Notes under the pieces: model-generated | The model's input: the letters and a program-made list of their open reading frames with translations, nothing else | Database searches by the model: none | Told to the model about the DNA's origin: nothing | Shown here: positions 1-15,589 of the stretch, in pieces | Layout: every line of letters begins with the position of its first letter | Position numbering within the stretch: position 1 is the stretch's first letter | IMG/VR virus record: IMGVR_UViG_3300044641_003190 | Span: 1 to 64,000 of that record | DNA: 64,000 nt | DNA from: a virus | Strand: one strand, 5' to 3' | Position numbers and translations under genes: made by a program

Positions 1-68
1 ACGTCTGAGATAGCAGACTTATTTGGAACGTGTGATTTACACACTTGGATTATTACATTTGAGTTCAT
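1..68 (-). CDS. Microprotein, partial (continues off the left edge)
   Basis: Translated by hand: ATG at 68 behind SD AGAAAGGAG, reading MNSNVIIQVCKSHVPNKSAISD... with no stop inside the window. Confidence 0.7.
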   Translation of the reverse strand, partial: MNSNVIIQVCKSHVPNKSAISD

Positions 69-118
69 TAGAACTCCTTTCTAGTTTGAGAACCTTTCTC
101 AACTTTCTTTATACTAGA

Positions 119-140
119 AGTATAACACCTACCACTGACA
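119..140 (-). promoter_or_regulatory. PafBC/RecA-NDp-type promoter 1
   Basis: Minus strand reads TGTCAG-tggtaggtgt-TATACT (N10 spacer), upstream of the ORF at 68. Confidence 0.75.
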
Positions 141-180
141 TTTACTGACCAGTAACCATACCAAAACGGACATTTGGGAT

Positions 181-196
181 TGTGATAAACCTCACA
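181..196. promoter_or_regulatory. CRP/GlxR-type box
   Basis: TGTGA-taaacc-TCACA, perfect consensus. Confidence 0.7.
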
Positions 197-222
197 CGGA
201 TTTTTCACGCTCAAATTTTCCA

Positions 223-238
223 GGTGATTAATCTCACA
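223..238. promoter_or_regulatory. CRP/GlxR-type box
   Basis: GGTGA-ttaatc-TCACA, one mismatch, 42 bp from the previous box. Confidence 0.6.
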
Positions 239-245
239 TCTTAAA

Positions 246-283
246 CGACACGCCCGACAGAGGCGCCTCGCTCGGGCGTGTCG
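246..283. repeat. 38-bp GC-rich palindrome with GACAC motifs
   Basis: CGACACGCCCGA-ca-GAGGCGCCTC-gc-TCGGGCGTGTCG. Confidence 0.85.
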
Positions 284-311
284 CCACGCCGTTGCGAGTT
301 AATTTAATTTA

Positions 312-503
312 TTAAAAATTAAACTCTAAAGAATTTGCGCCAGTTGCTTTTGCAAATCTCTCTGGGTCAAATCTCGGATTATCTTTTTCAAACATTTCAG
401 AAAACTCATCTACCAAATCGTTAAATATTGCGGGATGAATTTCATCCGAATATTGTTTTAAAATGTTAGCAGTTTCCTGATAATCTTTTCTAGTCATTGT
501 CAT
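312..503 (-). CDS. Hypothetical microprotein (MTRKDY...DNPRFDPERF type)
   Basis: ORF track, AGGAG SD, TAATG coupling to the upstream ORF. Confidence 0.8.
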   Translation of the reverse strand: MTMTRKDYQETANILKQYSDEIHPAIFNDLVDEFSEMFEKDNPRFDPERFAKATGANSLEFNF

Positions 504-673
504 TATTTAATTCTCCTTAAAAATCTAGGAGTTTTAATTGGATACTTTTTAAAATATCTAATTGCATAAATTAAAACTGCGGCGGTGATAGCAAAGCCCC
601 AAGTAAAATCAAAGCCTGCCCAAGGTGAGTAAAAACCTAAGCCCCACTCATTTATTTCGATTGTTATTTCCAT
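503..673 (-). CDS. 56-aa membrane microprotein (not in ORF track)
   Basis: MEITIEINEWGLGFYSPWAGFDFTWGFAITAAVLIYAIRYFKKYPIKTPRFLRRIK; SD GAAAGGA; hydrophobic stretch followed by a basic tail; TAATG overlap at 503. Confidence 0.75.
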   Translation of the reverse strand: MEITIEINEWGLGFYSPWAGFDFTWGFAITAAVLIYAIRYFKKYPIKTPRFLRRIK

Positions 674-698
674 TAGTTAGTTTTCCTTTCGTAGTTTA

Positions 699-720
699 AT
701 TCTATCGGTTAGCCCTGACA
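699..720 (-). promoter_or_regulatory. PafBC/RecA-NDp-type promoter 2
   Basis: TGTCAG-ggctaaccga-TAGAAT; a TTGACA also lies 18 nt upstream of the -10. Confidence 0.7.
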
Positions 721-724
721 ATTG

Positions 725-865
725 TCAAGACCTCCAAACATATCCAACAAGGTCACAAGTGCGACCCTCTAGAGTTTGCTTACAGTTTGAGTAAATCGGA
801 TCGGTTAGAATATCAAAGGACACAATACCCGAGCAGATGAGAAGGGAAGCGATTATAGATTTCAT
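725..865 (-). CDS. 46-aa microprotein with hydrophobic N-terminus (not in ORF track)
   Basis: MKSIIASLLICSGIVSFDILTDPIYSNCKQTLEGRTCDLVGYVWRS; TAATG overlap at 865. Confidence 0.65.
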   Translation of the reverse strand: MKSIIASLLICSGIVSFDILTDPIYSNCKQTLEGRTCDLVGYVWRS

Positions 866-1053
866 TATTGCTTTCTCCCCATGATAGAGCCACCAATAGC
901 CAAGACATCACAAGCAAAGCTAACCTTAGTGCCTTTACTTAATCGGTTAGGTAATTCTTCTATGAATAACCTTACAGCGTTTTTATTGGCTAGGCTAATA
1001 TTCATTACCTCACCGCTATAAGTTTCTAATCTAACTTGGTATCCTGATTTCAT
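865..1053 (-). CDS. Hypothetical microprotein
   Basis: ORF track; TAATG-coupled on both sides. Confidence 0.75.
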   Translation of the reverse strand: MKSGYQVRLETYSGEVMNISLANKNAVRLFIEELPNRLSKGTKVSFACDVLAIGGSIMGRKQ

Positions 1054-1214
1054 TATTTATTATCCTGTTCTATCTTATGGACTAAGTATTCAAACTTAAT
1101 AGGTGGATTAACTGAGTTTAACTCGTCTATAGTCTTAACTATATCTTTAATACTATTAGAGGTTAATGTACCTTTTTGCAAAGAGCCTTGCCAAATTGAG
1201 TAAGTTAGTTTCAT
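1053..1214 (-). CDS. 53-aa microprotein (not in ORF track)
   Basis: MKLTYSIWQGSLQKGTLTSNSIKDIVKTIDELNSVNPPIKFEYLVHKIEQDNK; SD GAGGAG; TAATG overlap at 1053. Confidence 0.75.
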   Translation of the reverse strand: MKLTYSIWQGSLQKGTLTSNSIKDIVKTIDELNSVNPPIKFEYLVHKIEQDNK

Positions 1215-1343
1215 TTAGTTATTCTCCTCTACATTAAAGTTATTGGTTAAAGCATTGTTTGCCTTAGTTAGGGCAAGGATAGCGTCCCTTAGACTTTTGG
1301 CTCTTTCAGCCTCTATCATTTCTTTATATTGTTGTATATTCAT
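1215..1343 (-). CDS. 42-aa helical microprotein (not in ORF track)
   Basis: MNIQQYKEMIEAERAKSLRDAILALTKANNALTNNFNVEENN; SD AGAAAGGA; abuts the next ORF. Confidence 0.7.
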   Translation of the reverse strand: MNIQQYKEMIEAERAKSLRDAILALTKANNALTNNFNVEENN

Positions 1344-1385
1344 TTAGTTTATCCTTTCTAGATAACTTTCATTTTGTTGTCTGTA

Positions 1386-1407
1386 AGACTATCAGACTTG
1401 ACCGACA
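1386..1407 (-). promoter_or_regulatory. PafBC/RecA-NDp-type promoter 3
   Basis: TGTCGG-tcaagtctga-TAGTCT. Confidence 0.75.
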
Positions 1408-1435
1408 TTATCAAGCCGACACGCATGGCGTGGGG

Positions 1436-1451
1436 TGTGATTTAGTTCACA
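1436..1451. promoter_or_regulatory. CRP/GlxR-type box
   Basis: TGTGA-tttagt-TCACA, perfect; overlaps the stop of ORF 1442-1642. Confidence 0.7.
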
Positions 1452-1642
1452 CGATTAGCGATAAGCCATTGGCTTTCGCTAGGGCTTAGGTATTTATGAG
1501 ATACGCAACCCTCTTTAGTAGAGAGTAACTCTAGATAAGCCTTACGGCTTATGTAGTTACCTACACTATTGCGAAACACTAGGCTATTGCCTGTGTTACT
1601 AGTAGCCATTGGGTGGCTAGCATCTATAATCATTTGAGACAT
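1442..1642 (-). CDS. Hypothetical microprotein
   Basis: ORF track, SD AGAAAGGAG. Confidence 0.75.
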   Translation of the reverse strand: MSQMIIDASHPMATSNTGNSLVFRNSVGNYISRKAYLELLSTKEGCVSHKYLSPSESQWLIANRVN

Positions 1643-1693
1643 TTTGTCTCCTTTCTAGTTTAAGGACTTTCCTTAACTTTCTTTATACATAGT

Positions 1694-1715
1694 ATTCTAG
1701 CAGAGGGTACTGACA
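1694..1715 (-). promoter_or_regulatory. PafBC/RecA-NDp-type promoter 4
   Basis: TGTCAG-taccctctgc-TAGAAT. Confidence 0.75.
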
Positions 1716-1909: not shown

Positions 1910-1939
1910 TTGACATAAAATTTACCTTGCTGTTATACT
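1910..1939 (+). promoter_or_regulatory. Sigma70-type promoter
   Basis: TTGACA-18 nt-TATACT with extended TG. Confidence 0.7.
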
Positions 1940-8555: not shown

Positions 8556-10478
8556 ATGTCATTACCATCAGCTTACCAAGAGTTTATCGCTCTATCAAGA
8601 TACGCAAGATACATAGATTCTGAAAATCGTAGAGAAACTTGGGGTGAGACTGTTGATAGATATTTTAATTTTATTATCGAGCACTTGTCAAAAAACTATT
8701 CTTACAAGCCAGAAGATAAATTAGTTAATGAATTAAAAAAAGCAGTTTATGGGTTAGACGTAATGCCATCTATGAGATCTGTTATGACTTCTGGAGCCGC
8801 ACTAGATAGAGACCACGTTGCTGGATACAATTGTGCGTTTATGCCAGTAGATAGCCCTAAGACATTTGATGAAGCGATGTATATTCTTATGTGTGGTACA
8901 GGAGTAGGATTCTCTGTTGAATATAAATATATTAATAAGCTTCCATCTGTTCCAGAGTCGCTAGAAAAATCATCAACTGTTATAACTGTTGAGGACTCTA
9001 AAACTGGATGGGCTAAGGCATACAGGGAATTGCTGGCACTACTTTGGTCTGGACAGATACCAACTATTGATATTAGTAAGTTGAGACCAGCAGGAGCAAG
9101 ACTTAAGACAATGGGCGGAAGATCATCTGGACCACAACCACTTGTAAACCTATTTGATTTTACAATTAAAGTTTTTAAAAATGCTGTAGGAAGAAACTTG
9201 AAGCCAATTGAATGCCATGACATTATGTGCAAAATTGGAGAGATTGTTGTTGTTGGTGGAGTAAGGAGATCTGCAATGATTTCTTTATCAAATATTAATG
9301 ATATTGAAATGGCACAGGCAAAGGTTGGAAACTGGTGGGAAAATAATTCACAAAGAGCTCTTTCAAATAACTCCGTTGCGTATTCAAGAAAACCAGAAAT
9401 GGCACAGTTTATTACAGAGTGGAAAAACCTGTACGACTCAAAGTCTGGGGAGCGTGGTATATATAATGTTGCAGCAGCACAAGCACAGGCAGCCAAGTAT
9501 GGAAGAAGAGATCCAGAGATACATTATGGAACTAATCCATGTTCAGAAATCATTCTAAGACCCTATCAATTTTGTAACCTATCAGAGGTAGTTCTTCGTG
9601 AGAACGATACTGTGGAGCAGGTAGAAAATAAAGTAAGATTGGCCACAATCCTAGGAACATGGCAATCAACACTGACTGACTTTAAGTATTTGCGTAAAAT
9701 CTGGAAAGATAATACAGAAGAAGAAAGACTTCTTGGTGTATCTCTAACTGGACAATTCGGACACAAGTTTTTTTCTGGAAAAGAAGGAATAGAAAAACTA
9801 GAAAAAACACTATCATCTCTTAGAGAATATGCAAGAAAGACAAACTCTGCAGAAGCAGAAAAAATTGGAATTCCAGAGTCAGCAGCAATAACTTGCGTAA
9901 AGCCATCTGGAACAGTTTCTCAACTAGTTGGGGTATCTTCTGGAATGCATCCGTGGCACTCTGAATATTATATTAGAACAGTAAGAGCCGACAATAAAGA
10001 TCCACTTACAGAGCTAATGAAGTCATACAACATTCCAAGCGAGCCAGACGTAATGAAGCCAGACTCAACTACAGTATTTTCTTTTCCAGTAAAAGCTCCA
10101 TCAGGAGCTATACTAAGAAACGAATTAACTGCAATAGAACATTTAAATATTTGGTTAGCATATCAAAGAGCTTGGTGTGAACATAAACCATCAATTACAG
10201 TATCCGTACATGAAAATGAGTGGATGGCAGTAGGAGCATGGGTATGGGAGCACTTTGATGAAGTTTCTGGAATATCATTTTTACCATACTCAGACCACAC
10301 CTACAAACAAGCACCGTATCAAGAAGTTAACGAAACAGAGTACCTAGAGCTATTAGCTAAAATGCCTTCAGTTATTAGATGGGAAGACCTATCCTTTTTT
10401 GAAAAAGAAGACATGACCGTTGGATCACAAACTCTAGCCTGCACATCCGACTATTGTGAAATTGTAGACATATCTTGA
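8556..10478 (+). CDS. nrdJ: Class II (adenosylcobalamin-dependent) ribonucleotide reductase
   Basis: YNCAF, GTGVGFSVE, VVGGVRRSA, TNPCSEI, TCVKPSGT, C-terminal C-x4-C; monomeric RTPR-like size; no NrdB partner nearby. Confidence 0.92.
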   Translation: MSLPSAYQEFIALSRYARYIDSENRRETWGETVDRYFNFIIEHLSKNYSYKPEDKLVNELKKAVYGLDVMPSMRSVMTSGAALDRDHVAGYNCAFMPVDSPKTFDEAMYILMCGTGVGFSVEYKYINKLPSVPESLEKSSTVITVEDSKTGWAKAYRELLALLWSGQIPTIDISKLRPAGARLKTMGGRSSGPQPLVNLFDFTIKVFKNAVGRNLKPIECHDIMCKIGEIVVVGGVRRSAMISLSNINDIEMAQAKVGNWWENNSQRALSNNSVAYSRKPEMAQFITEWKNLYDSKSGERGIYNVAAAQAQAAKYGRRDPEIHYGTNPCSEIILRPYQFCNLSEVVLRENDTVEQVENKVRLATILGTWQSTLTDFKYLRKIWKDNTEEERLLGVSLTGQFGHKFFSGKEGIEKLEKTLSSLREYARKTNSAEAEKIGIPESAAITCVKPSGTVSQLVGVSSGMHPWHSEYYIRTVRADNKDPLTELMKSYNIPSEPDVMKPDSTTVFSFPVKAPSGAILRNELTAIEHLNIWLAYQRAWCEHKPSITVSVHENEWMAVGAWVWEHFDEVSGISFLPYSDHTYKQAPYQEVNETEYLELLAKMPSVIRWEDLSFFEKEDMTVGSQTLACTSDYCEIVDIS

Positions 10479-10519
10479 TCTATTGTGTATAATTAATATA
10501 AATAGAATGGAGAAAAAAA

Positions 10520-10987
10520 ATGAATAAAAAAATAAATAAAAAAATATTAATAGTTTTATCTGTTATTATTATTTCTTTCATTGGGTTTCCAGTGGTAAGT
10601 AAAAATAATTCAAATTGCATAAACCTATATGTTGATTATAGTGTACTGGACAATAAAACAAAACTAACCAAATGCTTAGAGGCCTCAGCCAATACAAATG
10701 CTTTAGATCTATTAAAGGGTGCTAACCTAACAATAGAAGGAACTAAGAAATATGGCGACGCAGTTGTTTGCCGAGTAAACGGATTACCAGATATATCTAT
10801 TGAGTCATGTGAAGATATGCCATCAGGAAAAGCATATTGGGCAATTATAATAAAAGAAAAACAAATTTTACCTTTTCCAACTAAAGAGTGGGGCTGGGGT
10901 CAGCTTGCCATAAATCAACAATATCTAAATCCTGGGGATTCAATAGGTTTAGTGTGGGCTAACAATGGAGAAGTAGTATTCCCATGA
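10520..10987 (+). CDS. Exported DUF4430/transcobalamin-C-like protein (putative B12 binder)
   Basis: N-terminal TM/signal; ALDLL..., YGDAVVCRVNGLP, YWA, W.W...I....LNPGDSIGLVW beta-grasp pattern; sits between nrdJ and pduO. Confidence 0.6.
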   Translation: MNKKINKKILIVLSVIIISFIGFPVVSKNNSNCINLYVDYSVLDNKTKLTKCLEASANTNALDLLKGANLTIEGTKKYGDAVVCRVNGLPDISIESCEDMPSGKAYWAIIIKEKQILPFPTKEWGWGQLAINQQYLNPGDSIGLVWANNGEVVFP

Positions 10988-11118
10988 AACTATTAGATAG
11001 ACATGTGGAACAAAAGTCTACTTACAAAGTAATAGTTCAACTTTCTTTAACTTTGATATGCTTATACATAGCAAACTCTAAAACAGTAGACATCTGGCGT
11101 TCTTTGACTGGACACTAA
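10984..11118 (+). CDS. 44-aa single-TM peptide (not in ORF track)
   Basis: MKLLDRHVEQKSTYKVIVQLSLTLICLYIANSKTVDIWRSLTGH; ATGA overlap upstream and TAATG overlap downstream. Confidence 0.7.
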   Translation: MKLLDRHVEQKSTYKVIVQLSLTLICLYIANSKTVDIWRSLTGH

Positions 11119-11687
11119 TGGTTAACCTAACTCGTATTTATACAAAAACAGGGGACGACGGAACCACTTCACTTGGAGATATGAGTAGAACTTCTAAAAA
11201 CGATCCAAGACTCGAAGCATTTGCAACAGTTGATGAATCTAATTCATACATAGGGGTTAGTATTCTTCATGTAAAAAATGAAGAAATAAGGTTACTGCTT
11301 TTAAAAATTCAAAACGACTTGTTTGATGTGGGGGCAGACCTGTGTACCCCAGTTGTAGATAATCCAGAAATTAAACCACTAAGGGTTACACAAGATCAGA
11401 TAGAATATCTAGAGTATCAAATAGACAAATATAATAAACACCTAAAACCACTCAGATCATTTGTTTTGCCAAGTGGTTCTTCGTCATCCTCACATTTACA
11501 TGTTGCCAGAACTATTGTTAGAAGGTCAGAAAGGTGTGCCTGGTCAGCCATATCCTCATTTGGTTCTGGGGTCAGCGTGTTAACTGCAAAGTATCTAAAT
11601 CGTTTGTCTGACCTGTTGTTTGTTTTAGCTAGATACGAAAATATAGAATTTGGAGATAATTTGTGGGTTCCTGGAGGTCCAAAGTAG
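11118..11687 (+). CDS. pduO: ATP:cob(I)alamin adenosyltransferase, PduO type
   Basis: IYTKTGDDGTT, TVDESNS, IQNDLFDVGADL, LHVARTIVRRSER, YLNRLSDLLFVLAR. Confidence 0.95.
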   Translation: MVNLTRIYTKTGDDGTTSLGDMSRTSKNDPRLEAFATVDESNSYIGVSILHVKNEEIRLLLLKIQNDLFDVGADLCTPVVDNPEIKPLRVTQDQIEYLEYQIDKYNKHLKPLRSFVLPSGSSSSSHLHVARTIVRRSERCAWSAISSFGSGVSVLTAKYLNRLSDLLFVLARYENIEFGDNLWVPGGPK

Positions 11688-13891: not shown

Positions 13892-15589
13892 ATGTCTATT
13901 AAATTTAAGTTACCTGTAAATTTAGTAGCTTTAGCCCAAGACCCAGTGTCAGCTAACGCTGGGGATATATATTATAATACAGCATTAAATTCTTTTAAAT
14001 ACTATAATGGAACCGCATGGGGTCCAGTATCATCTTCATTAACTTCTGAAGAAATTCAAGATGCAACAGCAACACTATTAAGTCACTCTAATCATACAAA
14101 TATAACAGCAACATATGACGATGCAAACAACCGTGTTGTTTTAACTGCTGAAGATGCAGTAAAAGTTCAATTTACCCCACCAACAACAGCTTCAGTCGGA
14201 GATGTTTGGTTTGATAATCAAACTGGAGAGTTTTATGTATATGATGGATCGTTTTGGGTTCAAGTATCTGGAGTAACAGGACCTACAGGACCCACTGGAC
14301 CTGCAGGTGTAGCTGGCCCTACTGGCCCCGCAGGACCTACTGGAGCCACTGGTACAACTGGTTCACAAGGAATACAAGGTGTGCAGGGTGAGCAGGGAAT
14401 ACAAGGTGTTACTGGTGCCTCTGCTGGAGTAAAGTGGTCATTCATAACTGGAACTACAGATTCAGACCCATCTTCTGGTAATTTTAAATTCAATAGTGCA
14501 GTTCCACTAACCGTAACAAATATTTATGTAAGCAATACAGATAAAATATCTGTATCCCAGTTTGACTGGATAGGAAGTTGGGATGACTCAACATCTTCAA
14601 CAAGAGGACACATAGTAATATCTGGTGAATCGGAATCTAAAAATTATGTTTTTGCAATTAATGGATCAGTAACTTCCGCTTCTGGATATTATAAGGTTCC
14701 AGTAGCATATGTTTCTGGTTCTACATCTATTCCAACAAATAATAGCAATATGTTATTTGTTGTTACTAGAACTGGTAATCAAGGAGCTACTGGCCCTACT
14801 GGTGCACAAGGAGAAACTGGTCCACAAGGAATACAGGGAATACAAGGAGCAACAGGAGCAACTGGCGCTACAGGACCAACTGGACCACAAGGTCCGACGG
14901 GACCACAAGGACAGGCTGGAGCATCAGTCACATTAAAGGGTAGCGTTGCTGCAGTTATTAATTTACCTTCAAGCGGAAATACAATAGGAGATTCATGGAT
15001 TGTAGATGCAGACGGAAATCTTTATGTTTGGAATGGAACTAGTTGGACAGATGCTGGACAAATAGTTGGGCCAACTGGACCAACAGGAGCAACTGGCGCA
15101 ACTGGCGCTACAGGACCAGCTGGTCCACAAGGTGAACAAGGAATACAAGGAGTTCAAGGAGCTACAGGCTCTACAGGCGCCACAGGTGCTACAGGTGCCA
15201 CAGGTGCTACAGGACCAGGTGTTGCAGCGGGAGGATCTACAGGACAGTATCTTGTAAAATCAAGCAATACAGATTATGCAACAGAATGGTCTAGCATTGC
15301 AGGAGGCCTATCACCACAATCAGTATCTACAAACATAACACTATCGGCAAGCACAAGATATTTTGTAGATACCACAGGAGACAGAAGCCTTACTTTGCCA
15401 GCCACACCAGCACTAGGAGCTGAAATAGAAATTTTAGATGCATCTAACAATGCATCAGTTAACGATGTTATTATAAATAGAAACGGTGAAAAAATAAATG
15501 GTGTTGCTGACAATGCATCATTAGATATAAGTGGATTTTCAGTATCATTTATATATACTGGATCTACTTATGGATGGAAGATGAAATAA
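13892..15589 (+). CDS. Collagen-like fibre protein
   Basis: Three Gly-X-Y tracts (about 14270-14420, 14780-14920 and 15070-15220) separated by globular modules. Confidence 0.85.

Follow-up and report, generated by a model that had tools for sequence, protein, structure and literature searches.

Why would each short transcription unit in a block of very small phage genes begin at a promoter built like those that actinobacteria switch on through PafBC, the activator of their DNA-damage response? The question arises at the left end of a 64-kb window of DNA, which is the first 64 kb of a 74.5-kb linear IMG/VR virus contig (IMGVR_UViG_3300044641_003190), about 60% complete and 37% G+C, from an uncultured freshwater phage of actinobacteria. 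Its portal protein is 60–62% identical to that of Streptomyces BE-cluster phages (Stanwilliamsviridae), and the gene order around the ribonucleotide reductase is similar, although a megablast search of the first 8 kb against GenBank phages found no match. The leftmost 1.7 kb holds eight small minus-strand ORFs, from 22 aa (cut by the contig end) to 66 aa, arranged in four units. The initial annotation of this region proposed that every unit is preceded by TGTC(A/G)G-N10-TAnnnT with an exact 10-nt spacer, that these are PafBC (RecA-NDp)-type promoters, and that the phage uses the host damage regulator to switch on early or host-takeover genes, possibly in response to its own injected or replicating DNA.

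The motif and its conservation

The motif is present as described, and the observation is confirmed. TGTCRG-N10-TAnnnT occurs six times in the window, all on the minus strand, whereas 100 dinucleotide shuffles gave a mean of 1.15 and none reached 6; the whole contig likewise has six hits on the reverse strand, none on the forward strand and none for the backwards control. Four of the sites lie 26–51 nt before the ATG of a leftward unit (starts at 1642, 1343, 673 and 68), each ATG being preceded by a GAAAGG-type ribosome site. The first, P1 (1694–1715, minus strand), reads TGTCAG-N10-TAGAAT, carries a TGn extended -10 and no -35, and is found as the same site in the related contigs G004 and L027. 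It precedes a 66-aa ORF of no known family (1442–1642, minus strand), the only gene of its unit. P2 (1386–1407, minus strand) reads TGTCGG-N10-TAGTCT with TGn, also has TTGATA at 17 nt, and precedes four coupled small ORFs of 42, 53, 62 and 46 aa (725–1343, minus strand; 1215–1343, 1053–1214, 865–1053 and 725–865) without Pfam or PHROG match. P3 (699–720, minus strand) reads TGTCAG-N10-TAGAAT and is overlapped by a perfect TTGACA -35 at 18 nt (723–728), both elements being kept in G003, a relative about 90% identical to this contig. Its unit contains two coupled small ORFs (312–673, minus strand), one of 56 aa with a hydrophobic stretch (503–673) and one of 63 aa (312–503) with weak PHROG hits of unknown function; overall, Pfam and PHROG searches of seven small ORFs gave nothing usable. 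P4 (119–140, minus strand) reads TGTCAG-N10-TATACT, or TGTCAGTG-N8-TATACT, with TGn and no -35, and the identical site is present in G003 and in the further relatives G014 and G019. The ORF that follows it (1–68, minus strand, ATG at 68) is cut by the contig end, but G003 runs past this end and there the block continues for about 10 kb with six more such promoters, so that the window shows only one edge of the block.

The remaining two hits look like chance. The hit at 238–259 lies in the 3' arm of a very stable GC-rich hairpin (244–285, minus strand, -39.4 kcal/mol, z -5.6), likely the terminator of the P3 unit, and is absent from G003, and it was therefore rejected as a promoter; the hit at 15491–15512 lies inside a gene. 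It could be argued that the whole pattern is chance, given that the motif is short and degenerate and that two of the six hits are probably fortuitous, or that it reflects simple inheritance of one duplicated promoter. This explanation is refuted by the shuffles, by the differing spacers, by the restriction of the sites to one strand, and by conservation well beyond the window.

Related lake-phage contigs carry 6–18 same-strand copies in a block of about 12 kb. Searching with the 66-aa ORF retrieved 15 viral contigs with copies 58–94% identical, each locus with 2–12 motif hits, and in 12 of the 15 all hits lie on the strand of the gene; by contrast, the loci found through the neighbouring 208-aa gene (L009–L023) mostly lack the motif. 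Among whole records, the relative G001 has 18 sites in 11.4 kb and G003 has 10 in about 11.5 kb, with controls of 0–2 across the records examined, while the complete genomes G011 (104 kb) and G015 (108 kb) have 13–14 sites in one block of about 12 kb, with controls of 0–1. Across five related contigs there are 49 sites at N10 against 0–14 at every other spacing from 4 to 16, and TGTCAG and TGTCGG are the only hexamers strongly enriched 10 nt before TAnnAT, at 38-fold and 25-fold. From about 55 distinct instances the consensus is aaaTGTCAG-T-S-S-N4-TGn-TAnAAT, with shared preferences outside the search pattern, namely T at +6 (73%), G/C at +7 and +8 and AAA just upstream, and with no general -35 consensus. 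The trait is clade-specific and not family-wide: the Streptomyces phage Muntaha (portal about 62% identical) has one hit in 127 kb, and two more distant relatives, the Streptomyces relative G017 and G016, whose host is not known, have two each, without enrichment.

The likely host and its PafBC genes

The class to which the sites were assigned is correct as a description. The published in vivo consensus of PafBC-dependent promoters is tGTCgg(N10)tA(N3)T, with the box at -28 to -23, with residues R46 and R50 of PafB reading the GTC triplet, and without a -35 element (PMC8635444). The phage sites match it in sequence, with the GTC invariant, and in their exact 10-nt spacing. A host lineage lacking PafBC had been named beforehand as a finding that would count against the proposal, and this condition did not apply to the inferred host family. 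The phage carries a class II ribonucleotide reductase followed by a PduO-type cobalamin adenosyltransferase (8556–11687; PduO at 11118–11687), and the PduO gene, which looks like a host-derived auxiliary gene, is 70–78% identical to genes of Nanopelagicaceae (acI) genomes, for example Ca. Planktophila versatilis, but only 54–61% identical to those of other actinobacteria; the host is thus inferred from a single host-like gene. Five complete acI genomes each have two adjacent WYL genes. In one of them, G006, these encode a WYL+WCX protein and an HTH_PafC+WYL+WCX protein next to tatC, the pafB-pafC-tat arrangement. The PafB candidate aligns over its full length with M. smegmatis PafB from the RNA polymerase complex structure (7p5x, E 8e-34) and keeps the RMFERDK stretch that holds R46 and R50.

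The same family uses the box at its damage genes. Each acI genome has only 12–15 motif hits per 1.3–1.5 Mb, little above control, yet one precedes recA on the correct strand in all five genomes, directly followed by a LexA box. In G006 other hits precede carD, a DUF6504-dnaE2 operon and a LysM gene flanked by LexA boxes. In three of the acI genomes the hits are clustered, with 10 sites at 439–471 kb of G010, 10 at 915–961 kb of G008 and 6 at 822.7–825.3 kb of G009; in the clusters of G010 and G009 they are mostly intergenic and before operons, and such clusters, whose genes were not annotated, may be damage-inducible or defence islands.

Which factor reads the promoters

The initial interpretation is partly supported. 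The four sites are real promoters of a class shared by a clade of freshwater phages related to Stanwilliamsviridae, each with a -10 element (TAnAAT, mostly with an upstream TGn) and a TGTCRG(T)(S)(S) box exactly 10 nt upstream, at about -28 to -23. The likeliest reading, to which a probability of about 0.6 can be given, is that host RNA polymerase with its housekeeping sigma factor starts here, and that the box is bound by host PafBC, the WYL-domain activator switched on by single-stranded DNA, which slots between sigma region 4 and the DNA ('sigma adaptation'; PMC8635444, PMC11804915). The one-strand block of small genes would then be switched on or boosted when single-stranded DNA appears in the infected acI cell, whether from phage DNA ends, phage replication or host damage. 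The sequence analysis establishes the motif, its spacing, its position before genes, its conservation, the presence of pafBC in the likely host family and the use of the same motif at host damage genes, whereas PafBC binding, dependence of transcription on PafBC and single-stranded DNA, the early or host-takeover nature of the genes and phage DNA as the trigger are inferred, in the absence of binding, transcript or infection data.

The phage promoters differ from textbook PafBC promoters in one respect. Of the roughly 55 family members, 73% have a TGn extended -10 and 27% have at least five of six matches to TTGACA at 17–19 nt, against 2.9% at random TAnnnT sites; in the window, three of the four sites have TGn, P3 is also a perfect TTGACA-18-TAGAAT promoter, P2 has TTGATA, and P1 and P4 have no -35. 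Many of them could therefore be read by sigma A alone, and PafBC probably boosts rather than strictly gates them. An alternative, considered unlikely although it is the strongest of the rivals, is that host sigma A reads the promoters on its own through the extended -10 or the -35, and that the box is the site of a phage-encoded factor of unrecognised fold, an activator or a timing repressor comparable to MotA at T4 middle promoters, the likeness to the PafBC box being convergence or mimicry. The block itself encodes dozens of small proteins of unknown function, and such proteins could bind the box. However, the box, its spacing and its flanking preferences match those of host damage promoters, and no WYL, HTH_PafC or Sigma70_r2 domain was found in this contig or in six relatives, two of them complete. 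Profile searches for HTH_Crp_2 in phage records were equally negative, as was an HMM and phmmer search with host PafB and PafC against six-frame translations of the phage DNA analysed; a weak WhiB-like hit in the contig (E 0.0014) fell below the cut-off and was not used. These searches do not exclude unknown folds.

A further, improbable reading is that the main role of the sites is titration, whereby 13–18 strong PafBC sites per genome, multiplied by replication, would soak up PafBC (and CRP) and blunt the host damage and defence response, transcription of the small genes being secondary. The phage carries as many sites as a whole host genome, and its -10 elements are closer to consensus than those of the host. 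Nevertheless, almost every site sits at a fixed distance before a ribosome site and an ATG, on the coding strand only, an arrangement that a pure decoy would not need.

Compared with the PafBC-dependent (RecA-NDp, recA P1-type) promoters of Mycobacterium and other actinobacteria, the phage sites have the same 22-nt bipartite layout and the same preference for T, G/C, G/C after the box, but they lie in a phage, in arrays of 13–18 driving small unknown genes, with a near-consensus -10 and, in about a quarter, a -35. The T4 middle promoters, with a MotA box at -30 plus a -10 (MotA/AsiA 'sigma appropriation'), are likewise hybrid promoters of a phage gene class in which an activator box replaces the -35 while the host -10 is kept; however, T4 encodes its own activator and co-activator, whereas no candidate was recognised here and the box equals the site of a host activator. 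The host-takeover or pre-early modules of large lytic phages, such as the SPO1 terminal-repeat genes and the T5 pre-early genes, are also one-strand blocks of many very small genes of unknown function in which each short unit has its own strong promoter, but they use plain strong housekeeping promoters rather than the promoter class of a host stress activator, and early timing is only inferred for the present block. Temperate phages with LexA boxes also read the DNA-damage state of the host through a host regulator, but by relief of a repressor, whereas the presumed regulator here is an activator sensing single-stranded DNA; no integrase or repressor was seen in the phage, without a systematic search for lysogeny genes.

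No published description of such promoters in a phage was found, although one cited study links PafBC to mycobacteriophage resistance, and WYL-domain regulators also control phage-defence islands. PafBC is known as the master activator of the actinobacterial DNA-damage response, and a phage that places a dozen or more PafBC-type promoters before its small genes would be the first case of a virus borrowing this single-stranded-DNA sensor, an activator-based counterpart to LexA-wired phages and a host-factor counterpart to T4 MotA/AsiA. As acI bacteria are among the most abundant in freshwater, this wiring could shape when infections proceed in lakes, and the conservation of the box and of the PafB residues that read it between acI and M. 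smegmatis makes the idea directly testable. More tentatively, a widespread clade of lytic-looking lake phages might run its whole small-gene programme, probably early or counter-defence, on host sensors instead of its own factors: PafBC would report single-stranded DNA made by the infection itself, helically phased CRP boxes and a LexA box would add nutrient and SOS input, and the phage would turn on in step with, or ahead of, the damage-induced and defence responses of the host.

Other host-type sites around the block

CRP/GlxR-like TGTGA-N6-TCACA boxes lie upstream of P1, P2 and P4 (1754–1769, 1436–1451, 223–238 and 181–196). In relatives such boxes are almost confined to the small-gene block, and their centres lie at about -64, -74/-76 and -84/-86 from the estimated start, a class-I-like helical phasing, before half of 66 promoters. 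The hosts have a 230-aa CRP-family protein, while none was found in the phages. A LexA-like box, TCGAACATGTGTTCGG, lies at 1827–1842 in the divergent region about 110 nt upstream of P1, and one box per related contig sits at the syntenic spot with a different central 4-mer (G003 21426, G004 7699, L027 4234, G001 25502, and 13221 in the relative G005); the recA gene of the acI hosts carries TCGAACAGATGTTCGG abutting its -10. On the minus strand the phage box ends 12 nt before a TATAAT (about 1808–1813), so it might gate a leftward read-through promoter. That the LexA-like and CRP-like boxes also lack a phage-encoded reader points to general use of host factors, and weighs against a dedicated phage activator.

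The long 5' leaders after P1 and P4 each contain a stem-loop (1657–1678 and 83–104, minus strand), in which the stem sequences differ but still pair (TTAAGGA/TCCTTAA against TTGAGAA/TTCTCAA), with further variants in relatives and with conserved leader flanks (ATAAAGAAAGTT ... AAACTAGAAAGGAG). Their folding energy is weak and not better than that of shuffles, and only the compensatory changes suggest that they are real. A GC-rich element, CGACACGCCCGA, lies about 25 nt upstream of the TGTCRG box in P1 (1725–1740) and in several relatives, and the same words form the arms of the terminator hairpin (247–283); host recA promoters also have GACAC just upstream of their box, and a TGTCCGNNTTG word lies 23–32 nt upstream of some boxes, including that of P4. 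Finally, a near-perfect housekeeping promoter, TTGACA-18-TATACT with TGn (1910–1939, plus strand), points rightwards away from the block, so the phage also uses ordinary promoters.
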